This document shows positions 10,097 through 35,932 of a DNA stretch of 37,380 nucleotides, one piece after another. The translations under genes and the position numbers were made by a program. Under the pieces are notes generated by a model. It was not told where the DNA came from. It ran no database searches and worked only from the letters and a program-made list of their open reading frames with translations. The number at the start of each line of letters is the position of its first letter. Within the stretch, counting starts at the first letter, position 1. The DNA is from a virus (taxonomy: Duplodnaviria > Heunggongvirae > Uroviricota > Caudoviricetes), in IMG/VR virus record IMGVR_UViG_2718218398_000011; one strand, 5' to 3'.

Positions 10097-10144
10097 AAAT
10101 AACGGTATTTGTCTGCTTGCAGGGATAATCAACATAATGCTGAT

Positions 10145-10717
10145 TCAGGGGGATTCATTGATCTTATTTGCCGGAAATTTTCTATAAATGGTAGAAACGC
10201 CTACATCAAAAATCAGTGCAATACGCTGTCTTGATTCTCCGGCCTCGAGTAAACGCCCAATCTGTGCCCACTGTTCGGTGGTCAACTTAGGACGGCGTCC
10301 ACCTACTCTGCCTTTGGCACGAGCTGCAGCCAGCCCTGCCCTGGTACGTTCAACTATCAGTTCGCGTTCCATTTCAGCCAGGGCACCCATGACATGAAAA
10401 AAGAAACGGCCCATTGGGGTACTGGTATCAATACTGTCAGTCAGGCTTCTGAAATTCACACCACGCTGGCGCAACTCTTCTATCAGCGTAACAAGATGCC
10501 GCATACTGCGCCCCAACCTGTCCAGCTTCCAGACAACCAGCGTGTCTCCTGCCGATAGTGTCCTGAGTAGTTTTTTCAGCCCCGGTCTGTCGGACTTAGT
10601 GCCACTGATTTTGTCCTCAAAAATCCGCTCACATCCCGCGCAGTTCAGTGCATTACGTTGCAAATCGGTGTTCTGGTCATTTGTTGACACGCGTACATAG
10701 CCAATAAGCATGATCAT
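10145..10717 (-). CDS. serine DNA invertase (Hin/Gin/Pin/Cin family)
   Basis: N-terminal GYVRVSTNDQ serine-recombinase motif and C-terminal HTH; 190 aa; adjacent to an inverted-repeat crossover site. Confidence 0.9.
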   Translation of the reverse strand: MIMLIGYVRVSTNDQNTDLQRNALNCAGCERIFEDKISGTKSDRPGLKKLLRTLSAGDTLVVWKLDRLGRSMRHLVTLIEELRQRGVNFRSLTDSIDTSTPMGRFFFHVMGALAEMERELIVERTRAGLAAARAKGRVGGRRPKLTTEQWAQIGRLLEAGESRQRIALIFDVGVSTIYRKFPANKINESP

Positions 10718-10766
10718 CCCCCTGAATAAAAACCGGAGATGATGCCAGTTAGCTGTTACCTCTGCA

Positions 10767-10794
10767 TTTTCTTAAACGTTGGTTTGGGAGAAGC
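10767..10794. repeat. inversion site, left (gix/hix-like)
   Basis: TTCTTAAACG-TT-GGTTTGGGAGAA; the inner half and core are the exact inverse of the site at 12623..12650. Confidence 0.6.
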
Positions 10795-11113
10795 GGCAAA
10801 ACGGAATGTGGGAACAGGGGAAAATCAGATACCTGATATGTCAGCTTATTCATCAGGATCTGGCTGGCAAAAATTGCCTGATGGTTCAATTGAACAGTGG
10901 GGAAGAATTAATTTCCCGAATAACGCCGCGGCGGTATCTACAAATGTGACTTTCACCATTCCTTTTACGCAGGAGCCAGACGTAGTGATTGTATATGACG
11001 GCGGTTTTGGTGGTGGGAATATGTGGGGCGCAACTAACTGGACGAAAACAGGTTTCGTTGCTCATTGTAACTATGGCTTTGAAGGTGGAGCCTTCTACGC
11101 GAAAGGGCGTTAA
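10781..11113 (+). CDS. alternative tail-fibre C-terminal exon (silent in this orientation)
   Basis: Open frame runs through the left site with the same GGT TTG GGA GAA (GLGE) codons as gene H at the right site; no independent start expected. Confidence 0.55.
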   Translation, partial: GLGEAAKRNVGTGENQIPDMSAYSSGSGWQKLPDGSIEQWGRINFPNNAAAVSTNVTFTIPFTQEPDVVIVYDGGFGGGNMWGATNWTKTGFVAHCNYGFEGGAFYAKGR

Positions 11114-11115
11114 TT

Positions 11116-11556
11116 ATGAAATATTTGTATGTTGATAATCTGGCGTACCCTTATGCCCTCCAGTCTGTTTACGCTGCAAAAGGCCAATGGCCCGAAGGTA
11201 AAGGCGTGGATATAGACGAAGCTATTTTCAGGGAATATTTCCATGATACGCCGCCTGACGGTAAGTACAGAATTACCGGAGACGATGGAATGCCAGCATG
11301 GGCAGATGTTCCACCGCCAACACGTGAAGAACAAATTGCATCAGCCGAAACTAAAAAGCAGCAATTGATTAATCAGGCCAACGATTATATGAACAGTAGA
11401 CAATGGGCTGGTAAAGCGGCTATTGGTCGTCTGAAAGGTGAGGAACTGGCGCAATATAATTTGTGGCTGGATTATCTGGACGCACTGGAGCTGGTCGATA
11501 CTTCCAGTGCACCAGATATTGAATGGCCTACTCCTCCGGCAGTTCAGGCCAGATGA
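11116..11556 (+). CDS. tail fibre assembly protein (alternative)
   Basis: 146 aa; C-terminus (WLDYLDAL...APDIEWP) resembles the Tfa on the opposite strand. Confidence 0.7.
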   Translation: MKYLYVDNLAYPYALQSVYAAKGQWPEGKGVDIDEAIFREYFHDTPPDGKYRITGDDGMPAWADVPPPTREEQIASAETKKQQLINQANDYMNSRQWAGKAAIGRLKGEELAQYNLWLDYLDALELVDTSSAPDIEWPTPPAVQAR

Positions 11557-12130
11557 CATCCGGCGCGGTGCTGATATCTGTTGCCGTCACCGCGTCAATG
11601 TAATCCAGCACAGCGTTAAGCCGGGTTGTTTCTGCCTGCGTCAGTTTCCGCCCGGCCTGTAATTTCAGTTGAATCAGACTAATGGAAGCCATTGCAGTAT
11701 CAATCAGTGACTGACGCTGTGCTTCTGCCGCGTCTACTGCGGCGCGATGCTGTGCCTCAGTATCGGTCACCCATTTCTCACCATCCCATTTATCGTATGG
11801 CGTTAATGGGGCGATAGTGGTTGTATTTTCGGGGTAATCACCCGGAGTTGTGATTTCTTTGGTGTCTCCCGTTTCGGTGTTATAGACGATTTCACCGCGA
11901 TGGTCTGGCACATATTCCCATGAGTTTAAATCTGCCGAACGGCAGATTGCATAACCAGCCTTATGTATACCAGGTTCATCCAGACAGGAATATGCCGGGA
12001 TACCAACACCAACGGCAAGATATTCATTTGAAGTGGAAATATATTCCCGAGTTTCACCATCATAGCTATAGACGGTAATATTCCCCGCCTTCGTGGCAAT
12101 AAGCTCGCTATTTAATACAGCGTTATCCAT
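11528..12130 (-). CDS. tail fibre assembly protein
   Basis: 200 aa, directly downstream of H; conserved Tfa C-terminus (LDYIDAV...APDVIWP). Confidence 0.8.
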   Translation of the reverse strand: MDNAVLNSELIATKAGNITVYSYDGETREYISTSNEYLAVGVGIPAYSCLDEPGIHKAGYAICRSADLNSWEYVPDHRGEIVYNTETGDTKEITTPGDYPENTTTIAPLTPYDKWDGEKWVTDTEAQHRAAVDAAEAQRQSLIDTAMASISLIQLKLQAGRKLTQAETTRLNAVLDYIDAVTATDISTAPDVIWPELPEE

Positions 12131-13686
12131 TATGCAGCTCTCACAATATAATTAAATGACGTATTACGTGGTCGTACTGATATCCATGCACTATAAAAAC
12201 CGTCTTCTGCTGTTCTCTGCGTTCCCGTAATGGAGTTATCAGACGAAGCTGGAACATAGTTACTGCTGTCGCCAGCTTTAGAATTAGCAGGTATCCCGCT
12301 TGTTTGTACTTTATCGGCGGAAGCAAATGCTATCCCCACCTTGACAGAGGTTGTTGTATCAACCCCGTAATAATCCTGTAACGCTGTACGAATAAAAGTT
12401 GCATCCTGACCACTGAGTAGTGATCGTCCACTGTCTACACCGCGTCCATCATCCCAGCCACGAATAAACTCACCGCGTAAATCAGGCAATTTATTTGTCG
12501 GGTAAGCCTTTGCCAGTTCCGGGTATTCTTCAGCAGAAAAAGCTGCACCATTGCATTTCAACCAGCCTGTCGGTGGTGTAGCTGAAGGCCACGGAACAGG
12601 CACACCAACCGGTAATGCTGAACCTTCTCCCAAACCAAGGTATGCGAGAAGACCAGCAACATCCTTTCCACTCAAATTAGTCAGCGTATTGTCCAGCGGT
12701 TGTTTACCTGCCAGTGCATTAAGCATTGTCGTGGCAAAGTTCGGGTCATTCCCCAGCGCCGCCGCCAGTTCGTTCAGTGTATCCAGTGCCGCAGGTGCAG
12801 AACCCACCATTGCCGCAATCGCCGATTTCACAAATGCCGTGGTGGCAATCTGTGTATTGTTGACCGACTGTGCCGCAGTCGGTGCGGTTGGCGTTCCGGT
12901 GAGTGCCGGACTCGACAGCGGCGCTTTCAGTGCCAGCGCATTGTTAATGGTGGTACTGAATTTCGGATCATTGTTAATGGCTACGGCTATTTCTTTCAGC
13001 GTGTCCAGCGTGGCTGGCGCATCATTAATAAGAGCCGTCAGTGCCGCCTGAACAAATGCGGTGGTCGCAACCTGCGTGGTGTTATTCCCCGTCGCTGGCG
13101 TTGGCGCTTTGGGTGTCCCGGTAAACGTAGGACTTTCTTTGGCTGCATACTGTGAATGCGGGTCCGGTGCGGCAAGATGTTTTGCCATCTGATCATCCGC
13201 GTACACCTTCAGCTCCAGTGCCTTGTCATCCACATACTTGCGGGTTGCCAGCACTACAGCAGGGTCGATTTTCAGGGTGATATTGTCCGTGCTGCTGGTA
13301 ATCAGCACCATGCGCACGGTCTGGGTACGCCCGCTGCCTTCAGCCAGTTGCGGCTTATAGCTTTCCGGGCAGTTGCCCACGGCAATCAATGCCCCTGACT
13401 CATCAAACAGGCCCACTTCACGTATCCACCAACCGCCCTCGTTTTCAGGGATCACCTGTTCAGCAATAATCTGGCTGCTGTTCTGTGGGTCGATATAGAG
13501 CATATTCAGCGCAGCCCGACGTTTCTCATTTACCAGTGCACTCTGCTTTGCGTCCGGCGTCGGCAATGTTCCGCCACCATCGCCCACCGCCATATGGGTA
13601 ATTTTTAGCGGCACACCGAGCGCGGCGGCGCTGGCAAGTTTCGCCGCGCCAATATCCGTCAGCAGGGTATAAAATTTTGTGCTCAT
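12130..13686 (-). CDS. H: tail fibre protein H (constant N-terminus plus currently fused variable C-terminus)
   Basis: 518 aa, P2 gpH-like N-terminus with repeat-rich shaft; the inversion site lies inside the codons for LGLGEG. Confidence 0.9.
   Translation of the reverse strand: MSTKFYTLLTDIGAAKLASAAALGVPLKITHMAVGDGGGTLPTPDAKQSALVNEKRRAALNMLYIDPQNSSQIIAEQVIPENEGGWWIREVGLFDESGALIAVGNCPESYKPQLAEGSGRTQTVRMVLITSSTDNITLKIDPAVVLATRKYVDDKALELKVYADDQMAKHLAAPDPHSQYAAKESPTFTGTPKAPTPATGNNTTQVATTAFVQAALTALINDAPATLDTLKEIAVAINNDPKFSTTINNALALKAPLSSPALTGTPTAPTAAQSVNNTQIATTAFVKSAIAAMVGSAPAALDTLNELAAALGNDPNFATTMLNALAGKQPLDNTLTNLSGKDVAGLLAYLGLGEGSALPVGVPVPWPSATPPTGWLKCNGAAFSAEEYPELAKAYPTNKLPDLRGEFIRGWDDGRGVDSGRSLLSGQDATFIRTALQDYYGVDTTTSVKVGIAFASADKVQTSGIPANSKAGDSSNYVPASSDNSITGTQRTAEDGFYSAWISVRPRNTSFNYIVRAA
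12623..12650. repeat. inversion site, right (gix/hix-like), inside gene H
   Basis: TTCTCCCAAACC-AA-GGTATGCGAGAA; the inner half is the reverse complement of the left site's inner half. Confidence 0.6.
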
Positions 13687-23895: not shown

Positions 23896-24923
23896 TGGGA
23901 AAGAGTAAGAAGAACCGCGCTGTGTCGACGAACCAGATTCAGCACAAAAGCCAGACTTCAGCCGAAGCATTCAGCTTTGGCGATCCCGTTCCTGTTCTGG
24001 ACCGCCGCGAACTGCTGGACTATGTAGAATGCGTACAGACAGATCGCTGGTATGAGCCGCCAGTGAGTTTTGACGGACTGGCGCGAACCTTCCGCGCTGC
24101 CGTGCATCACAGTTCACCAATTGCGGTGAAATGCAACATTCTGACCAGTACCTACATCCCTCACCCGCTTCTCAGCCAGCAGGCTTTTTCACGTTTTGTG
24201 CAGGACTATCTGGTATTTGGTAACGCTTACCTGGAGAAACGCACGAACCGGTTCGGTGAAGTTATCGCCCTTGAGCCTGCTCTGGCAAAATACACCCGAC
24301 GTGGGTTAGACCTGGATACCTACTGGTTTGTGCAATACGGTATGACAACCCAGCCGTATCAGTTCACGAAAGGCAGCATTTTTCATCTGATGGAGCCGGA
24401 CATCAACCAGGAGATCTACGGCCTGCCCGGCTATCTTTCTGCCATTCCATCCGCCCTGCTCAACGAGTCCGCCACGCTGTTCCGCCGTAAGTATTACATC
24501 AACGGCAGCCATGCAGGCTTCATCATGTACATGACCGACGCCGCGCAGAATCAGGAGGATGTGAACAACCTCCGCAACGCGATGAAAAGTGCCAAAGGTC
24601 CAGGCAACTTCCGCAACCTGTTTATGTACTCGCCTAACGGCAAAAAAGACGGGCTTCAGATCATCCCATTGTCAGAAGTCGCGGCGAAGGATGAATTTCT
24701 TAACATCAAGAACGTAAGTCGGGATGACATGATGGCGGCGCATCGTGTGCCGCCGCAGATGATGGGGATAATGCCAAACAATGTTGGGGGGTTTGGGGAT
24801 ATAGAAAAAGCCAGTTGCGTTTTTGTGCGAAATGAGTTAACTCCTTTACAAAAAAGACTTGTAGAAATTAATATTTGGCTAAAGAAAAAAATAATAGCCT
24901 TCAAAGATTATTCATTGAATTAG
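23892..24923 (+). CDS. Q: portal protein Q
   Basis: 343 aa, P2 gpQ-like; the last ~30 codons are AT-rich. Confidence 0.9.
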   Translation: MMGKSKKNRAVSTNQIQHKSQTSAEAFSFGDPVPVLDRRELLDYVECVQTDRWYEPPVSFDGLARTFRAAVHHSSPIAVKCNILTSTYIPHPLLSQQAFSRFVQDYLVFGNAYLEKRTNRFGEVIALEPALAKYTRRGLDLDTYWFVQYGMTTQPYQFTKGSIFHLMEPDINQEIYGLPGYLSAIPSALLNESATLFRRKYYINGSHAGFIMYMTDAAQNQEDVNNLRNAMKSAKGPGNFRNLFMYSPNGKKDGLQIIPLSEVAAKDEFLNIKNVSRDDMMAAHRVPPQMMGIMPNNVGGFGDIEKASCVFVRNELTPLQKRLVEINIWLKKKIIAFKDYSLN

Positions 24924-24934
24924 ATAAAATGTGT

Positions 24935-24952
24935 GGGGGATGAAAATCCCCC
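24935..24952. terminator. hairpin between convergent Q and the KAP NTPase gene
   Basis: gggggat-gaaa-atccccc, a 7-bp G/C stem with a GAAA loop in a 35-bp intergenic gap. Confidence 0.4.
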
Positions 24953-24957
24953 CCAAA

Positions 24958-26610
24958 TTACAAATACCGTCTAACACGTATTTTATTAATGCTCGACTCA
25001 TTTCCAATTCTTATCAAAGCATTTCTCGCTTTTTCTCCGATGCGTTTCATTCTTTCTGAACCATTGCTATACCCACCAAACTTAAGAGCAGTAGCTATTA
25101 TTGAATCACCACCATCAAGAATGACTTTTTTAAATAAATCATAGTAGTCATCCTCTGAGGCAGCATCCAATATTTCCTCGTGCCTATCAGACCAACCATT
25201 CTGACTTGATAATTTTATTAGAACATCCTTTATAGAACCATCCAGATTTAAAGTAGTAGAATAATCTTGGATTTTTGACTTTAACTCAGCATCTTTTATA
25301 GGATGAACATTCATGTAAATAGATTGAACATATTCCTTAAGAGCATCATTGCCGTAATTAATAAATTTACTTATTAATTCACTTGCTTTAATATTTTCAC
25401 CTAAATCTCTATACAGTCCGACAACACTATCCAAGTCACTTGGAGTTACATACTCTATCCCACCAACCACCGCTTGATATAGATTATCAATAACCTGATT
25501 TCGGTTATCTTCAAATGAATTATAGAAAAGCTTCCATGCTTCAAACAGTGAACCTCGCTTACTATCACGGATAAGTTCATCATTCCTTAGACTTACTTGC
25601 CTTTGGAAATTGTTCATATCAATATATCCATGCCTTACCATGTCTATAAGGACTTCATCAAGTTCGTTTGTTTTTTTATAATCATATATAAGCAAAGTAT
25701 TAAGCCATTTTTTTTCTTTTCCATCCTCTTTTTCATCACGCATATAGATATTTCTCATATTTCTAATATACTCCAATGATGGTACATCTCCATCTGGAGT
25801 AAATGCGTAATGACTCCAACAATACAAAGTTAAGGAGTGTGCGACTTCATTTGCAATTTTTTCAAAATTAACGTTAATGCCAGGTAACAAGGCTAGCAAA
25901 AACCGCTCTATTTTTTTCAGTATCCTAATATTCTTAATACCCAGGGAAATGGAGTATTTGCTTAATAATTTATGAACATCAGAATTATTTTTATATGCTA
26001 TAACTGCACATTCTTCTGGAGTAGGATTATAGGTAATCTCTCTATCAATAACCTTTTCTTTATAAGTGGAGTAGTCATCCATACCACTTGTCCCGTTATT
26101 AAGTAAAAGAACCACCTTACAATTTTTTTGTTCTTTCAATAAAGAAACCAACCCTAAGACATCTTTCACTTCTAAATTTTTACCACGTCTTTCTAAGTCA
26201 TCTATGACTACAATAACATTAGTAATTGACATAAATGACATTGACTCAAGTGTCGTAGTGAAATTTTTCAAAAAAGGTGTATCTTTTAACACACGAGCGG
26301 TCTTTCTAGTGCAGGATTCAAGAAGCCCCTTTGCATTTTGTGTTGCTGTTTTTAAATTAGGTTTGTTTCCAATGAAATCTTTCGTAATTGTATTTTCAAA
26401 GATGGAGTATTTTAATGCGTCCAATGAATTAACACCAAAAAGAGAGACGTAACTATATCTATTAAATGCAATCTTATTTTTATTTTCCTTTAAGAAAGCA
26501 TTCCAAGTATAGGTTTTCCCAATCCCCCACTCACCCTGAATAGCCATTACCTCAGGTTCTGCAGATGAAATAAAGTCTGACAACTGTTCTTTAATATAGT
26601 CTAATGACAT
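24958..26610 (-). CDS. KAP-family P-loop NTPase (cargo; candidate anti-phage protein)
   Basis: Walker A GEWGIGKT and Walker B VVIDDLERR in KAP-type arrangement; start placed at MSLDYIKEQL, which has GGAGA six nt upstream (track ORF starts at 26640); strongly AT-rich. Confidence 0.7.
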   Translation of the reverse strand: MSLDYIKEQLSDFISSAEPEVMAIQGEWGIGKTYTWNAFLKENKNKIAFNRYSYVSLFGVNSLDALKYSIFENTITKDFIGNKPNLKTATQNAKGLLESCTRKTARVLKDTPFLKNFTTTLESMSFMSITNVIVVIDDLERRGKNLEVKDVLGLVSLLKEQKNCKVVLLLNNGTSGMDDYSTYKEKVIDREITYNPTPEECAVIAYKNNSDVHKLLSKYSISLGIKNIRILKKIERFLLALLPGINVNFEKIANEVAHSLTLYCWSHYAFTPDGDVPSLEYIRNMRNIYMRDEKEDGKEKKWLNTLLIYDYKKTNELDEVLIDMVRHGYIDMNNFQRQVSLRNDELIRDSKRGSLFEAWKLFYNSFEDNRNQVIDNLYQAVVGGIEYVTPSDLDSVVGLYRDLGENIKASELISKFINYGNDALKEYVQSIYMNVHPIKDAELKSKIQDYSTTLNLDGSIKDVLIKLSSQNGWSDRHEEILDAASEDDYYDLFKKVILDGGDSIIATALKFGGYSNGSERMKRIGEKARNALIRIGNESSINKIRVRRYL

Positions 26611-26670
26611 GTACATTCTCCGAGATAGATAGTCATCCATATTATAACCCGAGTACTATCAAAGTAATAA

Positions 26671-26696
26671 GCGCGCGCTCGTATCCCCGCCACGCC
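26671..26696 (-). other. candidate cos site (cohesive-end region)
   Basis: Minus strand reads GGCGTGGCGGGGATACGAG CGCGCGC, resembling the P2/186 cohesive end as I remember it (GGCG[A/T]GGCGGGGAAAGCA.. followed by GCGCGC); a G-rich block in an AT-rich island at the expected map position. Confidence 0.4.
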
Positions 26697-27039
26697 TGCC
26701 CGCTTTATGTAGTGGTTTTCATGCACCTGCACGACATAAGCAAAAGCACGCCAGTTCTGGCTGGCCTCAGCAAAAACGATCCTCTAACGATCATGCGATC
26801 TCATGCGTCATAGTCATGCACAGCCAAGGGAAGCGTAAATCCGTATCTGAATGACCGCTGAAAAGCTAATCATACGGGTTTACAAAGATGAAAGTCCGCT
26901 GTGAGCGAAAAGCGGATATTCCCATTGTTTTATCTTGATCTAGTAAAAACAATACCCCCTTTACAAACAAAAATAATGAGTTACTATTTTCAGCTCCTTT
27001 TAACCCAAAGGTTTATAATTAAAAAGGAATGGCATACCG

Positions 27040-27693
27040 ATGAGTAAATACAAACTTTTCGCACAGCTATCAAGATATTCACTTGAAGCGCAGATTGATG
27101 ATTTCGAAAAATATATCCTAGGAGCAGGCGGCCAAAACAGAGTTGACTTAGCGGAATTAAAAAAAGCATATGAAGATGAAAAAAAGAATGCTCCTGACGA
27201 TTATATTAATTACTTAGAAGACTATTATTCAGAGCAATATGATTTCTTAGTTAACATACAACCAAATATTTTTAATAAATCTGCTTTGGTATCTTTATAC
27301 TCATGCTTAGAGCACAACCTAAACGACTATTGCAATATATGTCAAAGGATTGTAAACACCAATATATCAGTAACCGATTTTAATGGTGATGGCATCCACA
27401 AAGCAAAAAGATATTTAACAAAATTAATGGATATAAACTTTGGCCTGTCACAAGAGTGGCAATTCATGACAGAGTTTAACAAAGTAAGGAATTGCATAGT
27501 TCATGCTAATGGAGACATTAAAAAAATGAGCACAGCTGTAGCCTTAAAAAATATCATTGATAAAACACCTACTCTTTCATTAAACAATGAAAATAATATA
27601 ATAATCTCCTTAAATTATTTAAAAGATACTATCACAAAAATTAGAAAACTCTTTCAATGGTTATATACACATCTGGATCAATCATCGAAATGA
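27040..27693 (+). CDS. hypothetical protein with HEPN-like RNxxxH motif (cargo; candidate abortive-infection RNase)
   Basis: 217 aa; EFNKVRNCIVHANG at residues about 146-158 fits the Rx4-6H HEPN signature; AAGGAA ribosome-binding site; AT-rich. Confidence 0.5.
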   Translation: MSKYKLFAQLSRYSLEAQIDDFEKYILGAGGQNRVDLAELKKAYEDEKKNAPDDYINYLEDYYSEQYDFLVNIQPNIFNKSALVSLYSCLEHNLNDYCNICQRIVNTNISVTDFNGDGIHKAKRYLTKLMDINFGLSQEWQFMTEFNKVRNCIVHANGDIKKMSTAVALKNIIDKTPTLSLNNENNIIISLNYLKDTITKIRKLFQWLYTHLDQSSK

Positions 27694-27793
27694 ATACGAT
27701 AACATCTCAGTTTGTTATTGGTCTATTTTTGAAAACAGCTATCGATGATATTAGTCTGTTCTTCGTCAATTAATATGCAATCCATTCATGACA

Positions 27794-27815
27794 CAGGGCT
27801 GCTGTTACAGCCCTG
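27794..27815. terminator. hairpin between the convergent HEPN-like and Abi_C-like genes
   Basis: cagggctg-ctgtta-cagccctg, a perfect 8-bp stem. Confidence 0.35.
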
Positions 27816-27942
27816 ACAACCTTAGACTTCAATCGATTCAGAGATCTCTAACGCATCATCACCCGTTGAACTCACAGCGATAAGTAGACGCTGGCGGCAA
27901 CACAGAAGTGTAGCGGGAATTTGAACCACATAATTTGGTTTG

Positions 27943-28809
27943 TTAGATGGCTTTGCTTCGATATTCAATTTCTAAAATCGCCTTTGTCATTGCCGCAATA
28001 GTTATAGCTTCTACCATAGTCAATTCAGGCTTGTTCAAGCTTCCGTGTCCAGCAGTAGGTAATTTGTTGCGTAAATCATAAATATCTTTAACAGCATCAA
28101 TAAGATTCTTAGGTAATTTTGACATTTTTTCGAACTGTTTAAAAAAACCACCCAATGACTCATTTGCCACATTCGGGTTTTGAGTGATTTCCTTAGCCAT
28201 AGTTTCTAAAATATTAGAGGCTGCGTGCAGTGCACCTGCCGGATCATTATTATCCAAGCAATTATTCATTCTATCTATTTGCTGAACGATATTTGGGTGC
28301 AATCTTTTTAAGTAATCACTAGCCAATTCTTCATTAAAATTTTTGACACTTTCAAAAACATCGCAATCTAAATAAAATTTAGGATTGACTGACATCCATG
28401 TATATTTCCAATCATTTTCTAAATTATCTTTTTCCGCAATACGCCTGCCAGTGTCCTGATCTATCTCATCAACATATTTACACATATAATCGGCGTAGTA
28501 GTGTAAATATCTAAATGATATTTCTGGGCAAAAATTACTAACTGATGCAAGGCCGCCATATTCTTTTGTAGTAACTGTAGGGACTTCTTCATCACATAAA
28601 GATGAGAAAGTGGTTCTTTCCCAAAATTCGCCCAACTCTTTTTCTTTCCTAGTTGCCATACCAGCTATCACATTGATGCTTGAGAGCAAAACTACACTCT
28701 GATAGTATCGAGGACATCTGTATGAACTAGCATATGGGCATATTGATGATGCTTTACGATTAATACGCTCTTTTTCCCACCAATTTTTATCAGGAATAAT
28801 TCTTTGCAT
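27943..28809 (-). CDS. hypothetical protein with Abi_C-like C-terminal domain (cargo; candidate abortive-infection protein)
   Basis: 288 aa; the C-terminal ~100 aa (ALHAASNILETMAKEI ... DLRNKLPTAGHGS ... ITIAAMTKAILE) resemble the Abi_C/HEPN-type domain as I recall it; AT-rich. Confidence 0.45.
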   Translation of the reverse strand: MQRIIPDKNWWEKERINRKASSICPYASSYRCPRYYQSVVLLSSINVIAGMATRKEKELGEFWERTTFSSLCDEEVPTVTTKEYGGLASVSNFCPEISFRYLHYYADYMCKYVDEIDQDTGRRIAEKDNLENDWKYTWMSVNPKFYLDCDVFESVKNFNEELASDYLKRLHPNIVQQIDRMNNCLDNNDPAGALHAASNILETMAKEITQNPNVANESLGGFFKQFEKMSKLPKNLIDAVKDIYDLRNKLPTAGHGSLNKPELTMVEAITIAAMTKAILEIEYRSKAI

Positions 28810-29297
28810 AATTTAGCTACTATCTCACGAGTGAATGAATGTTTAGCCTTCTGCACAGTTTATCAGTTCCGGCATGCCTACTGCTACCCCACTGATTCAA
28901 CTTCAAGTTATGAGTTAAAGCGATTCGGTTTCGCTAGATGACACACTAGTGTTAATTTATGGATAAAAATTTATCACTTAAAATTAACTAATGCCTGTTG
29001 CGACCAAAAGTGTGCTGGAATATTATTTTCGTCTGACCTATTATCAAGCTAATTATCCAAATTAGAGTTACTCTCATTCATCAGCAACAAATAAATACAC
29101 CTGTTCACTTTCTCAAAGTGTTCCTGTTTTATTTTTAAAGCAAACAACGCCGCCTATTCGTCCGAATGTACAACAAACATCAGGTTCTGACACAAAGTGG
29201 ACGATCACTTATCAAAATGACCGCCCACCTTACACCTCATTTCACTCGTTGCCCAAACTCCCCCCAACAGGATAAATCCTCTTGGGGGCAACGTTTC

Positions 29298-29531
29298 TTA
29301 ATGCAGCCAGCTGTCGTCTTCCCACACCTTCTGCATAATTTTCATCACTTGTTTTCTTTCTTCATCCAGTTGCAGTCCGGTCAGTTCCACACCGTTAGAG
29401 CTACCTTTACGGATACGAATTACCGTTTTTGGATACAGGGGGCGCAGATTGCGGTAAAGCTCGGATTCAAGGGCGTCCAGGGTAGACTGGCTAATCTTCT
29501 GCTCTTTATCGATCATTATTTCAATGCGCAT
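29298..29531 (-). CDS. DinI-family protein (Tum C-terminal-like; SOS-induced)
   Basis: 77 aa from MRIEIMIDKEQ...; DinI-like throughout (RIEI..., ...VWEDDSWL). The track ORF starts at 29603 and overlaps the upstream gene. Confidence 0.8.
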   Translation of the reverse strand: MRIEIMIDKEQKISQSTLDALESELYRNLRPLYPKTVIRIRKGSSNGVELTGLQLDEERKQVMKIMQKVWEDDSWLH

Positions 29532-29541
29532 AAAAGTCACC

Positions 29542-29730
29542 TCAACTGATGACATCCATTGAGCGGTTGTATTCGTGGGTTCTGATCTTTGCCATGAGTT
29601 CATCAGTCAATTCAGAAACCCACTGCAGAGCCAGCCCCTTCTCTTCATCACTACACTCACTAGCCGCTACAAGCTTAAGAAAAAAATCAATGCGCTGGAG
29701 CTTCAAAGACTCCAAAAAATAGTCCTGCAT
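29542..29730 (-). CDS. small SOS-operon protein (possible Tum N-terminal-like antirepressor part)
   Basis: 62 aa from the ATG preceded by AGGAGG; first gene downstream of the LexA box. The track ORF starts at 29832, upstream of the box. Confidence 0.5.
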   Translation of the reverse strand: MQDYFLESLKLQRIDFFLKLVAASECSDEEKGLALQWVSELTDELMAKIRTHEYNRSMDVIS

Positions 29731-29773
29731 CTTTCCTCCTATGACACCACAAGCAATACTGTATGCATAACCA

Positions 29774-29789
29774 CTGTTTATATTTACAG
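29774..29789. promoter_or_regulatory. LexA (SOS) box
   Basis: CTGTTTATATTTACAG, a perfect CTGT-N8-ACAG with AT-rich spacer, overlapping a promoter-like region upstream of the small ORF and DinI-like gene. Confidence 0.75.
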
Positions 29790-29883
29790 TATATAATAAT
29801 CTTACTGATGTAAAACGTTTTTTTACGTTCATCAGCCTGATATGCCTGGTATTATTAAGAGCACGAATTGTTAATCCGCGTAA

Positions 29884-32298
29884 TTAATACAGGTTCCGCC
29901 ACTTATCATCTTCCCACAAACGCTGGTTCCGATAGAAGATACGCAAGCCTGCTCCTGACGGAATACTGCCGCCGCGAAGGAGTAAATCGACCTCTTTCTC
30001 GCTACCATCAAATCCTCTGGACTTCAGCTCATAGACGAGCTGCAGTCGCTGATGGTATGTAATTCGCTGTTTGTAGTCTTTACGCCGTTTCGGTTTAACC
30101 AGGCGTAACCTTGCTGCCAGGTCCCGGCGCTCTTTTTTGCTCATACTGTGCAGGTAATCGTGCAACTCCTTGTCATCCATGCGGGTAATGTCCGTTCTGG
30201 TATCCCCATCAGCTGATTTGTCTTTCCCTTGTTGGTACAAATTTTCAGCAAGGGGACAGTTATTGCCACGAGTCCAAGGGGCGCAAGCGCCCTGGTCGGC
30301 TGCCGCCTCCTGAACGTCAACGGCTTTACGGACCATTTTCCACTTCACTGCATGAGTGCAGATCTTGCCCTCTGCAATGGGTGACCAGATGCCATAAATA
30401 CGAATACCGTGATCGCCATAGGCGGTCGGCTCTTCGTTGATTTCATAAGCGGTTCTGATGAGGTGATATTTACGGGGAACCAGTACGCCGCCCTGCTTCA
30501 TGATGTAGGTGGCAAAGCAACCAGCATCAGCTGCAGCCAGAATGGCATCAAGGCGCGGGTTATCCAGTACCGGCGCACCTGCTTTTTTGTCACCCTGTTG
30601 CCTTGCCGCCTGACCAGCCAGCAATCGCAGTTCACGGTAAGCCTGACGCCCCGGAATGCCAAAGAAGCGGAATTGCTGAACACGATGCAGAGACGCCCAG
30701 GCATTAACGTATTCAGCGTTATCACGCAGAGATTTACCCGTTTCCTTGCTGATCTCGCCAGCCAGACCACGCCCGTCAATGTTCTTACTGATGTATTTCG
30801 CGATGTAGCTTGTTGGTGTACCTTTGCGCGGGTTTATCAGCTCAGACTTAAAGCGTGGTCCTGTGTTATTACCCAGCTCCTCGCGGTCTTCACGAATGGC
30901 AAACTTACGCAACAAAGCAGTAATGGCGCGGCGATCTTTTTTGCGCATAAAACACAACAGGTGCCAGTGAACTGTACCGTCATGATGCGGCTCAGCCACC
31001 CGCACGCCATACCAGCGCAATCCGGCTTTGTACATCGCCTTACGAAATGCAGCAAACATGCCGACCAGATAATCACTGCTTTGTCTTACCGTCGCATTTG
31101 TCCAGGTCGGGTTGGGCCTGCCGTTATTTAGCGTGGAATGGAAACGTGACGGACAGGTGATGGTGTAGAAAACGGCGCAGTCACCGCGCATTTCCGCGAT
31201 AAGCTCCAGACCTTTAACACATGCCATCATCTCATTGCGGCGATGCGCCGGGTTGCTACTACTGGCGTTTACCACGTCCTCCATATCCAGCGTGTCGCCG
31301 TCTTCGTTCACCAGTTCATGAGAACGGAAAAACTCCAGCGACTTACGGCGCTGCTCACGTTTATGCATCACGGCTTCATAGCTGACATAGGGAGATGCTT
31401 TTTTGCTGACCAGGCAAACAGCACGCAACTGCTCTTCCCGCCATTCGCAACGCATCTTCCATAATTTCCGATACCACCAGTCGGCGCACAACATACGCGC
31501 CAGCGAACCCGGAATGAGTTCATAGGGTACGGGTTTACGGCGGTTTCTTTTCCGGCGGAGTTGCTCAAACGCAGGAGGGATGACATCCAGACGCAGGGTT
31601 TCCGCCGCCACCCTTTCCCATGTCTTGCGGATTTCTTCTGGCTTAACGTCATCGGTGGCATACAAATCACCACAAGCTGCATCAAGGCACATGCTCATAT
31701 GTGCGGCAACAAGGGTAGACAGGCGCTTCACCTGATCCTGACTCATTTCAGGCAAGATCAGCAGGCCGTCCAGCCCTTCATGGCTTGCCATAAAACGAAA
31801 AGATGCAGATAGCTGGCTGTCGCGTACATGCTCTAGTCGTTCCAGACATGGTTTAATCGTCTCACGCAAATAGCGGGAATAAGCCTTTGGCCTGCCCAGG
31901 CTGCTGAAGTATTCAATACGTTGCATCAGCGGCTTGCTGATATGGGAAGGCTGGGCGTTAACGTCCGCCAGTATGACCATGTCCGGATTAAAACGCTGCT
32001 GCTCATGCACCAGCTTTGCCCGGCTAATGAGCTTATCCTGCTCCATTTCGCGCTGGACAGGATCACGGGATTCATTAAAGAAATAACGCTCCCAGACCTG
32101 ATCACTCAGTGCCTCGCGGCGCAGTTGTTCCTGCTTGTTATCGGCAGCGTACAGAGTGATCAGGTTTGAAAGCGCAGAAACCGGCGCAACTTCCGCCGGG
32201 TCCAGATAAGGGTTAATCGCCTTTTTCGGGCTGTTCCATGAGAATGCTGCGGCGGCCTCGTTAAAGCCGCTGCAGTTGTTCATATCAGCATGTCTCAT
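29884..32298 (-). CDS. A: replication initiation protein A (rolling-circle HUH endonuclease)
   Basis: 804 aa; HUH motif [11 protein letters not shown] and catalytic-Tyr motif [12 protein letters not shown], as in P2 gpA. Confidence 0.9.
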
Positions 32299-33152
32299 GC
32301 ACGTACTCCGTACACGGCAGAACTATCCACGCCACGCGAAGGATCAAATCCCACCCAGCAGCGCGCCCCAGAAACAGCGATGATTTCTGTTGCAGATTTA
32401 CTCTCACCAGCTGCTACGCCGATGCTGCGTTTTGCCTTGATGTAGTGGTGAGTAAAATTGCGATACAGCGAACGGATCAGGGATGTGTCACTGTTAGAAA
32501 CAATGACCGGATGTCCTTCTGATGACCGATGTTCAAGAACGGATGCCAGGTGATACTGGTCATCTTCAGTGAAACCATCAGTGTGATAGCTGGAAAACGT
32601 ACCGTCATACGGCGGATCGCAATACACCACATCCCCCGCCTTCAACATCGCCAGCGTTTCATCAAAGCTGGCGCAGATAAACGTTGCTCGTTGGGCTTTC
32701 TCTGCAAATGCGCAAATTTCTTTTTCAGGGAAATACGGATTTTTATAATTACCGTAGGGAATGTTGAAATGCCCGCTCTTGTTATAGCGACATAACCCAC
32801 GGTAACCGTGACGATTGAGATACAGGAAATATACCGCTTTCATGAAATCAGTAATTTCAGTTGAGTAATTAAACTCCTGCCTTATGTTGTAATAAGCCAC
32901 CTCCCTGTTTGCTTCCTTAAATAAAACTCTGGCGCGAGATATAAACGATTCACAATCAGCGGCAACCTTTTTATAGAGGTTGATTAAATCAGGATTAATA
33001 TCCGCAACCAGATAGCTGGGATAATCCGTCTCCATCATCACAGCACAGGAACCCGCGAAAGGTTCAACCAGTCGCGGGCCAGCTGGAAGATGTTTTTTCA
33101 GTTCTGACATTACGGCGGTTTTATTTCCCGCCCATTTCAGGATGGTGCTCAT
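32295..33152 (-). CDS. dam: DNA adenine methyltransferase (Dam-like, D12 class)
   Basis: PFAGSCAV (FxGxG-type) and DPPY motifs; start placed at [11 protein letters not shown], overlapping the upstream stop by ATGA (track ORF starts at 33212). Confidence 0.85.
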
Positions 33153-33376
33153 ACAGCACCTCCGTTGTAATGTTTGCCTTTCAGCTCTGCGATTTCCTGA
33201 CAGGTAATGCAAAGCTGCACACCTAGAATGGCGCGGCGGCGTGCTGGCGGAATTGGCGCTTCACACTCAATGCAAAGCACGCGGGACACGCCCGGCGTTT
33301 TGGCACGGGCAGCACGGATATGGCGCTGGCGTTCTTCTTCAACGCGCTGCTGTACGAGATCCATTGCATCAGCCAT
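33149..33376 (-). CDS. TraR/DksA-family C4 zinc-finger protein
   Basis: 75 aa; CIEC...CITC zinc finger; positional equivalent of P2 orf82. Confidence 0.8.
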   Translation of the reverse strand: MADAMDLVQQRVEEERQRHIRAARAKTPGVSRVLCIECEAPIPPARRRAILGVQLCITCQEIAELKGKHYNGGAV

Positions 33377-35217: not shown

Positions 35218-35362
35218 AAGGCAACATTCCTTCTAGATATGGCTTGTGGCGAGCCGTTGTTTGTCGTGATTAGTAGTGAAGGCTCCAAAAGAACACTTCT
35301 GGTTCAACTTTAAGATCGCTTTTGGAATCTGTCAACGAATTTTGGATTTCTTTGGAGGACTT
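35218..35362. promoter_or_regulatory. immunity switch region (early and lysogenic promoters and operators)
   Basis: 145-bp gap between the divergent apl/cox-like and cI genes; inferred from position only. Confidence 0.5.
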
Positions 35363-35932
35363 GTGGATTTCAATAGCGGCGGTAAGAAAGCCATAGAACG
35401 TTTAGTTGAAGCATATGGGTTCGGTACCCGTCAGGCTCTCTGTGATCATTTAGGTGTTTCTAAGAGCACCATGGCAACGCGCTATATGCGTGATATTTTT
35501 CCAGCAGATTGGGTAATCCAGTGCGCCCTTGAAACGGGCACCTCGCTTAATTGGCTAACAACAGGGCATGGTTCAAAGCAAGCATCAGCAAATACAAATA
35601 CTATAGAAGTAGAAAAATATTTATTGTCTGATGGAGCATTGCAGAAAGACGGTTTTTATATTTTTGATAAGGAATTTCTACCCTCTACGTTTAAAAAACC
35701 TTTTGTCATCACAGATAACAATTCTGAATTTATTTGTGATAAAGAATTTGATGATATACGTGATGGTAAATGGGTAATAAGTATTGATGGCGAAATAACG
35801 ATCCGTGACATTACTCGTTTACCCGGTGGAAGAATCTTCGTCGAGGGTGGAAACAGAGCCTTCGAATGCAAGATAGAAGACATTGAAATAATTGGTAAAA
35901 TTATAAGTTTAACAGTCAAGTATGTTAAATAG
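35363..35932 (+). CDS. cI: CI immunity repressor (phage 186 type)
   Basis: In-frame GTG at about 35363 preceded by GGAGG; LVEAYGFGTRQALCDHLGVS...CALETGTSLNWLTTGHG resembles the 186 CI N-terminal domain. The track ORF starts at 35276. Confidence 0.8.
   Translation: MDFNSGGKKAIERLVEAYGFGTRQALCDHLGVSKSTMATRYMRDIFPADWVIQCALETGTSLNWLTTGHGSKQASANTNTIEVEKYLLSDGALQKDGFYIFDKEFLPSTFKKPFVITDNNSEFICDKEFDDIRDGKWVISIDGEITIRDITRLPGGRIFVEGGNRAFECKIEDIEIIGKIISLTVKYVK

Follow-up and report, generated by a model that had tools for sequence, protein, structure and literature searches.

The window analyzed here, a 37,380-nt stretch of phage DNA, carries an SOS module on its minus strand (29814-29298). The module lies directly downstream of the replication gene A, which is encoded on the same strand. 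Read along the minus strand, it consists of a TTTACA hexamer, a 17-nt spacer, a TACTGT hexamer embedded in a LexA box, an AGGAGG Shine-Dalgarno sequence, a 62-residue ORF and a 77-residue ORF, which are referred to below as tumA and tumB, respectively (Table 1). A preliminary description of this DNA had listed the LexA box, the strong AGGAGG site, the 62-residue ORF and a gene of the DinI family, and each of these elements is found at the coordinates given there, on the minus strand. The AGGAGG motif precedes the ATG codon of tumA by 4 nt. The two ORFs are separated by a gap of 10 nt, and a second Shine-Dalgarno sequence, GAGGTG, overlaps the tumA stop codon. A 96-residue version of the small ORF that starts at an upstream ATG (29832) was rejected; it crosses both the promoter and the LexA box, and relatives do not conserve the extension. 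The same gene order, in which gene A is followed by the module, is observed in phages 186, PSP3 and Fels-2 and in DuoHS, the prophage of Escherichia coli HS. The window segment is 97.5% identical in DNA to Fels-2.

Table 1. Features of the SOS module, its flanking gene and the presumed target repressor in the window
Feature	Position	Strand	Basis
Replication gene A, P2/186 gpA-type endonuclease	29884..32298	-	ORF list; "replication endonuclease" in all matching records
Putative -35 hexamer TTTACA of p95-like SOS promoter	29809..29814	-	Read from sequence
Putative -10 hexamer TACTGT, left arm of LexA box	29786..29791	-	Same as annotated 186 p95 -10
LexA (SOS) box TACTGTAAATATAAACAGTG (minus strand)	29772..29791	.	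Consensus match and conservation
Shine-Dalgarno AGGAGG of tumA	29735..29740	-	Read from sequence, AGGAGGAAAG ATG
tumA, 62-aa putative antirepressor, homologue of 186 Tum N-terminal half	29542..29730	-	Profile comparison
Hairpin at tumA/tumB junction	29536..29553	-	Terminator-like match and RNA fold
tumB, 77-aa DinI-family protein, equivalent of 186 Tum C-terminal half	29298..29531	-	Pfam DinI
G+C-rich hairpin just past tumB, possible partial terminator	29261..29288	-	RNA fold
186-type CI immunity repressor, presumed TumA target	35363..35932	+	Pfam and identity to 186 CI

TumB is a DinI-family protein. It matches the Pfam DinI profile (PF06183) over all of its positions (1-63/63) with an E value of 6.6e-23 and a score of 81.3 bits against a cutoff of 24.2, and it falls into PHROG 189. 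Residues 1-75 of its 77 residues align with E. coli DinI (PDB 1GHH; E 2.7e-6), so that the alignment spans almost the whole length and takes in the acidic C-terminal WE(D/S)..W region. TumB differs from E. coli DinI in that it is phage-encoded and co-transcribed with an antirepressor gene. Moreover, TumB is 41% identical to residues 71-145 of the 186 Tum protein (E 3e-24), which bears out the earlier view of the downstream ORF as both DinI-like and Tum-like. Residue 71 of Tum coincides with an internal GTG start codon that the 186 record annotates for a "truncated Tum", a product that "modulates SOS induction". Given this internal start, 186 also makes a free DinI-like product.

The relationship of TumA to Tum is much more distant. 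The N-terminal parts of TumA and 186 Tum are only ~19% identical, and BLASTP aligned the 62-residue protein neither with full-length 186 Tum nor with PSP3 TumA. The protein has no family in Pfam or PADLOC, a profile search of the PDB returned no solved relative, and its PHROG (698) is labeled "unknown function". However, when hhalign was used to compare the profile built for the window group with a profile of the 186 Tum N-terminal half and its relatives (EtG, ENT90, YenM and PSP3 TumA), residues 2-42 of TumA aligned with residues 2-42 of Tum at a probability of 96.3% and an E value of 1.8e-9. The two profiles are small, containing 5 and 6 sequences, and the homology also leans on intermediates. 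In a translated search of the phage collection, TumA matched ESSI2-type and Cronobacter phages (E 4e-9 to 8e-8) and, weakly, Yersinia enterocolitica phages, and the N-terminal 70 residues of 186 Tum matched the same Yersinia loci (E 3e-6 to 7e-3). The Yersinia phage proteins, which are reached from both queries, bridge the window and 186 Tum groups, and an all-versus-all comparison reveals a continuous chain between them. Thus, on profile evidence, the small ORF and the N-terminal antirepressor half of Tum are homologous, a kinship that is visible at the profile level only. Given that TumA aligns with Tum residues 2-42 and TumB with residues 71-145, the two ORFs read as a colinear Tum that is split by a stop codon, as the preliminary description had suggested. 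TumA is an acidic protein.

The split arrangement has been described before. In the PSP3 record, tumA carries the annotation "similar to 5' end 186 tum; UV induction of prophage" and tumB the annotation "similar to dinI and 3' end of 186 tum". Furthermore, tum has been reported to be split by a stop codon in both Fels-2 and PSP3, with the upstream gene acting as the antirepressor (Lemire 2011, PMC3121763), and a split module has been studied experimentally in DuoHS. Fels-2 (STM2728 and STM2726.1) resembles the window in its 98% identical TumA and in the split form located downstream of gene A behind a LexA box, and differs from it in the gene that follows tumB. In PSP3, too, gene A is followed by a LexA box, a small antirepressor gene and a DinI-like gene, whereas the PSP3 TumA is very divergent and the tumA-tumB gap measures 3 nt. 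In 186, the module also follows gene A, a LexA box covers a TACTGT -10 hexamer, an antirepressor part is joined to a DinI-like part, a DinI-only product starts from the internal GTG, at the first Tum residue aligned with TumB, and the repressor is of the same CI type. Unlike the window, 186 encodes both parts in a single polypeptide of 146 residues and has orf97 as a third gene. A further parallel is provided by the dinI-gfoA/gftA operons of the Salmonella prophages Gifsy-1/-2/-3, which are LexA-repressed and combine a DinI homologue with a small antirepressor (PMC3121763). The Gifsy operons differ from the window module in their inverted gene order, with dinI leading, and belong to lambdoid phages with a repressor of another family (PMC3121763); their small antirepressors inactivate a noncleavable repressor (Lemire 2011, PMC3121763).

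The LexA box was evaluated by its match to the consensus and by its conservation. The sequence CTGTTTATATTTACAG at 29774-29789 is the sole occurrence of CTGT-N8-ACAG in the window. This loose pattern is weak on its own, given that 0.44 occurrences are expected by chance and at least one was found in 37 of 100 shuffles. However, the surrounding 20-mer, CACTGTTTATATTTACAGTA, departs from the consensus TACTGTATATATATACAGTA at only 3 positions; it is the only site in the window within three mismatches of the 20-bp LexA consensus, and none of the 100 shuffles yielded a match as good. A LexA box with 1-4 mismatches is also located 17-48 nt upstream of the tumA or tum start codon in all 13 phages compared (the window prophage, Fels-2, SopEphi, two Klebsiella/E. 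coli relatives, ESSI2_ev015, Cronobacter ESSI-2, two Yersinia phages, ENT90, 186, EtG and PSP3), in which the flanking sequences diverge widely. A second LexA site just downstream of the box (..GTTATGCATACAGTA) is not claimed, as its left half lacks CTG.

The promoter is assigned by analogy, because a generic sigma-70 scan is silent at this position while the annotated p95 promoter of 186 has the same design. In p95, a -35 hexamer TTCACA is followed after 18 nt by a -10 hexamer TACTGT that lies inside the LexA site. The generic scan called no promoter for the module, where TACTGT fits TATAAT at 3 of 6 positions, and its minus-strand matches were restricted to the AT-rich spacer downstream of tumB. 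Upstream of tumA, Fels-2 and DuoHS have nearly the same sequence as the window, with the LexA box and both hexamers included. We infer that a p95-like promoter drives the module. The overlap of the LexA box with a promoter-like region, as first described, is retained in that TACTGT, the left arm of the box, is the annotated -10 hexamer of 186 p95, with the promoter itself resting on the analogy.

The closest system on which experiments have been performed is DuoHS. DuoHS carries a TumA (ECHS_RS04495) that is identical to that of the window at 61 of 62 residues and a TumB (ECHS_RS04500) that is identical at 77 of 77. The LexA box and the -10 and -35 hexamers are the same, and the leader shows two substitutions elsewhere. 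Both prophages occupy the ybjL-rcdA chromosomal site and are colinear throughout, and they differ in the tail-fibre region, in the cargo between tumB and the portal gene Q and in CI at 13% of residues. ECHS_RS04495 is a 189-bp gene annotated as a "hypothetical protein" and is followed by the DinI-like ECHS_RS04500. In the Phollow study, this gene was deleted as "tum" by fusing its start and stop codons, and a lexA(Ind-) strain was also constructed (PMC12055606). Both the delta-tum and the lexA(Ind-) lysogens showed neither lysis nor virion foci after mitomycin C treatment (PMC12055606). SOS-inducible prophage induction by the window module is supported by this experiment on a near-identical module. 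Published work on such near-identical or homologous modules has established that induction depends on LexA and requires the small gene, and by analogy both would apply to the window prophage. In Salmonella LT2, Fels-2 was lost in all survivors of lexA loss, according to the summary given in PMC12626290 of Bunny 2002.

What is the repressor that TumA would neutralize? The window encodes a CI repressor in an ORF at 35276-35932, whose start codon is probably the GTG at 35363, as judged from the DuoHS annotation. The protein is 33% identical to 186 CI (E 2e-38) and matches the Pfam families Phage_CI_repr (E 2.5e-31) and Phage_CI_C (E 2.8e-29), which identifies it as a 186-type repressor and not as a P2 C protein. 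A match to Peptidase_S24 remained below threshold (16.6 bits versus a cutoff of 23.3) and was not taken as evidence of RecA-mediated cleavage. The preliminary description had placed the module beside a 186-type cI and had read SOS-inducible prophage induction from this neighborhood. The repressor type is correct, whereas the adjacency is not, since cI lies 5.6 kb away across the early operon. This distance is the normal 186 layout, and the conclusion drawn from the type of cI still holds. Some phages whose CI shares only 41-57% identity with the window CI nevertheless carry a TumA that is 100% identical.

The locus very probably serves as the SOS induction module for a prophage of the P2/186 family (Peduoviridae) that is a close relative of DuoHS and Salmonella Fels-2 and resides between ybjL and rcdA. 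Based on the related systems, we propose the following mechanism. In the lysogen, host LexA would occupy the box that overlaps the -10 hexamer and the start site of the p95-like promoter and thereby keep the bicistronic tumA-tumB transcript off. Upon DNA damage, activated RecA would trigger the self-cleavage of LexA, allowing tumA-tumB to be transcribed. TumA would then bind the 186-type CI stoichiometrically and block its binding to the operators. A direct contact between TumA and CI in the window prophage is predicted from 186, where Tum sequesters CI by reversible stoichiometric inhibition and LexA represses p95 (PMC7708051), and where Tum has been shown to bind CI and keep it off its operators (Shearwin 1998, cited in PMC3121763 and PMC7708051). 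Once CI is blocked, the early lytic promoter would fire, and the prophage would be induced to express its lytic genes. TumB would most likely bind RecA filaments and tune how strong or how long-lasting the SOS signal is, and not act on CI, as its family membership suggests. This role is uncertain; in the Gifsy prophages, nonpolar dinI deletions had no significant effect on induction (Lemire 2011, PMC3121763).

How far would the SOS transcript extend? Within the module, a hairpin spans the tumA/tumB junction. Its loop contains the tumA stop codon, its 3' arm contains the tumB Shine-Dalgarno sequence (GAGGTG), and TTTTATG comes next. The Klebsiella phage ST437-OXA245phi4.1 has a hairpin of different sequence at the equivalent junction. 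The junction hairpin may mediate translational coupling or attenuation between the two genes. The cargo region starts right behind the tumB stop codon, and a second, G+C-rich hairpin is located within its first bases. This hairpin has a predicted folding energy of -27.9 kcal/mol (z -2.0) and lacks a proper U tract, and the terminator scan did not report it. Beyond it, an AT-rich spacer of 490 nt separates tumB from an ORF of 288 residues (28809-27943) on the same strand.

The operon may accordingly be longer than two genes, with SOS transcripts reading past the weak hairpin into the cargo from the 288-residue ORF onward and placing part of the defence-hotspot cargo under SOS regulation. A precedent is found in the 186 annotation, where transcripts from p95 run past t95a, a partial terminator, and reach orf97, a gene that blocks 186 infection when expressed. 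The missing U tract, the silence of the terminator scan and the shared strand of the next ORF are consistent with such read-through. However, the 490-nt AT-rich gap has promoter-like matches of its own on the minus strand (29047-29020), and the cargo is unrelated to orf97 and is swapped among relatives exactly at the tumB stop codon, the point at which homology to Fels-2 and DuoHS stops. The window has no orf97 homologue that would form a third gene of the operon, and Fels-2 STM2726, which was considered as an orf97 homologue, was rejected as such. On balance, we regard read-through into the cargo as unlikely, albeit the most probable of the alternatives considered.

A further alternative accepts the bicistronic module as intact but assumes that TumA is not matched to the CI variant of its own prophage. 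The module would then act in trans on other prophages or do no more than modulate the SOS response in the manner of DinI. No phage in the collection has a CI close to that of the window (best 57%), and the window CI differs from DuoHS CI at 13% of positions, most frequently in the N-terminal domain and the linker. Nevertheless, the window CI comes much closer (87% identity) to DuoHS CI, in a prophage where tum is required for induction, and all parts of the module are intact. TumA also seems to tolerate variation in its presumed target. When CI was divided into the N-terminal helix-turn-helix domain and the remainder, the six carriers of an identical TumA core displayed CI N-terminal domains that are 66-84% identical to one another, versus 30-46% for the C-terminal domains, save one identical pair. 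A TumA that fails to act on its own CI is therefore quite improbable.

The same comparison bears on how TumA would recognize CI. TumA identity tracks the identity of the CI N-terminal domain (Mantel rho 0.80) much more closely than that of the C-terminal domain (rho 0.46), although the 14 phages form a small and nonindependent sample, so that the correlation is a lead and not a result. As a lead, it fits a TumA that contacts the DNA-binding domain of CI, and it leaves room for cross-induction of prophages with divergent CI. A bolder reading, which we hold tentatively and consider somewhat unlikely, is that TumA is a broad-specificity antirepressor that sees a conserved surface of the CI N-terminal domain; alongside it stands the second possibility that SOS read-through past tumB brings part of the cargo in the gpA-gpQ defence hotspot under LexA control. 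If TumA were of broad specificity, one SOS-induced TumA could cross-induce P2-like prophages with divergent CI in one cell. A single E. coli genome can hold as many as 3 copies of the module.

Which of the two proteins would be the induction effector? TumB is the only part of the module that belongs to a recognized family, and the small ORF could in principle be a leader or coupling ORF, with the DinI-like protein responsible for induction. The junction hairpin is compatible with this arrangement, in that it suggests a dependence of tumB translation on tumA translation, such that a tumA deletion could in principle affect tumB. However, the small gene of DuoHS was deleted by joining its start codon to its stop codon, which kept the downstream signals, yet induction was abolished. 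Moreover, antirepressor activity in PSP3 resides in the upstream gene (Lemire 2011, PMC3121763), and it is TumA whose identity follows that of the CI N-terminal domain. ENT90, YenM_06.16-2 and ESSI2_ev015 have a tumA-like gene behind a LexA box but lack the DinI part, which indicates that the antirepressor function is separable. An effector role of TumB in place of TumA is thus very improbable, and TumA is retained as the presumptive antirepressor.

A fortuitous LexA-box match upstream of a promoter that LexA does not regulate, which the chance expectation of 0.44 for the loose pattern might suggest, is extremely improbable in view of the 20-mer that no shuffle equaled, the box kept at the equivalent place in 13 phages despite divergent upstream sequences and the block of DuoHS induction, behind an identical box, by lexA(Ind-).

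The window prophage would consequently belong to the SOS-inducible 186/Fels-2/DuoHS kind of P2-like phage and not to the noninducible P2 kind. As a member of the SOS-inducible kind, it should respond to DNA-damaging antibiotics by entering the lytic cycle and transferring its cargo. The only gap concerns annotation, and no new biology is implied: the 62-residue gene, which is labeled a "hypothetical protein" in RefSeq and of "unknown function" in PHROGs and appears at times as a 96-residue ORF or a "levan regulatory domain protein", could be named tumA. The module is found in 1124 of 5426 complete E. coli genomes, or about a fifth.

The repressor CI, the presumed target of the antirepressor TumA, appears to covary with TumA primarily through one of its two domains. 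We compared the window CI (35363-35932) with the CI genes of 13 other phages, a small and non-independent sample in which the identity of the N-terminal helix-turn-helix domain of CI follows TumA identity with a Mantel rho of 0.80, and that of the C-terminal domain tracks it far more poorly (rho 0.46). Among carriers of identical TumA, the N-terminal domains of CI are 66-84% identical and the C-terminal domains 30-46% identical. The CI ORFs of Klebsiella phage 4LV2017 and PSP3, which span 318 and 296 codons between stops, respectively (the annotated length of PSP3 CI is 286 aa), carry the N-terminal helix-turn-helix domain motif twice, in tandem, whereas the window CI and 186 CI have it only once.

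What regulates tumB, the DinI-family gene that directly follows tumA? At the junction of the two genes is a hairpin whose loop contains the stop codon of tumA and whose 3' arm contains the Shine-Dalgarno sequence of tumB; UUUUAUG comes next. In Klebsiella phage ST437-OXA245phi4.1 the equivalent position has a hairpin that differs in sequence, and SopEphi has a weaker one. This position over the tumA stop codon and the tumB Shine-Dalgarno sequence, together with its recurrence in relatives, suggests that tumB is subject to translational coupling or attenuation. In the leader of tumA, a second TACAGTA half-site is found 12 nt past the LexA box as part of a ACAGTGGTTAT-N3-TACAGTA motif, which is retained in the more divergent leaders of SopEphi and Klebsiella phi4.1. 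The motif was considered as a second LexA site and rejected because its left half lacks CTG.

Public records that match window 29542-29832 disagree on tumA. The product is a 'hypothetical protein' in RefSeq E. coli entries, and MK416009 and MK422454 name it 'levan regulatory domain protein'; MK416011 and NC_049342 extend the gene to ORFs of 96-97 aa that cross the LexA box, and it is not called in the 4LV2017 and ESSI-2 records.

Features of the window, with coordinates and supporting matches
Feature	Position	Strand	Match or remark
Region missing in DuoHS	10129-13222		
Resolvase-type serine invertase	10145-10717	minus	Pfam Resolvase, E 2e-53
Inverted repeats, 27 nt	10767-10793 and 12624-12650		
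Low-GC cargo block	24882-29299		between portal gene Q and tumB
KAP-family P-loop NTPase, 560 aa	24958-26640	minus	PADLOC PDC-S49, E 2e-25; PHROG 4740
217-aa ORF	27040-27693	plus	RTasHEPN-like, weak
288-aa ORF	27943-28809	minus	Abi_C, weak
tumA/tumB junction hairpin	29536-29553	minus	
ACAGTGGTTAT-N3-TACAGTA	29745-29771	minus	just downstream of LexA box
D12-class N6-adenine DNA methyltransferase	32295-33212	minus	Pfam, E 1e-75

In P2-like phages the gpA-gpQ interval is a defence hotspot (Rousset 2022, PMC9122126), and the cargo block lies within it. The block contains three ORFs, and its GC content is 0.29-0.40 over most of its length, with a short stretch of 0.45 near 26.5-26.9 kb. The cargo of the related prophages DuoHS and Fels-2 is unrelated to that of the window, and none of the complete E. 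coli genomes of the collection carries at least 80% of this 4.4-kb arrangement. Several ETEC and pig strains share the 2.6 kb proximal to tumB, with 99-99.9% identity.

The methyltransferase gene lies immediately upstream of the replication gene A and overlaps it, an arrangement shared with Fels-2 and DuoHS. Finally, the region missing in DuoHS looks like an invertible tail-fibre segment that would govern host range; besides the invertase gene, it holds two tail-fibre assembly genes in opposite orientations and an alternative fibre C-terminus.
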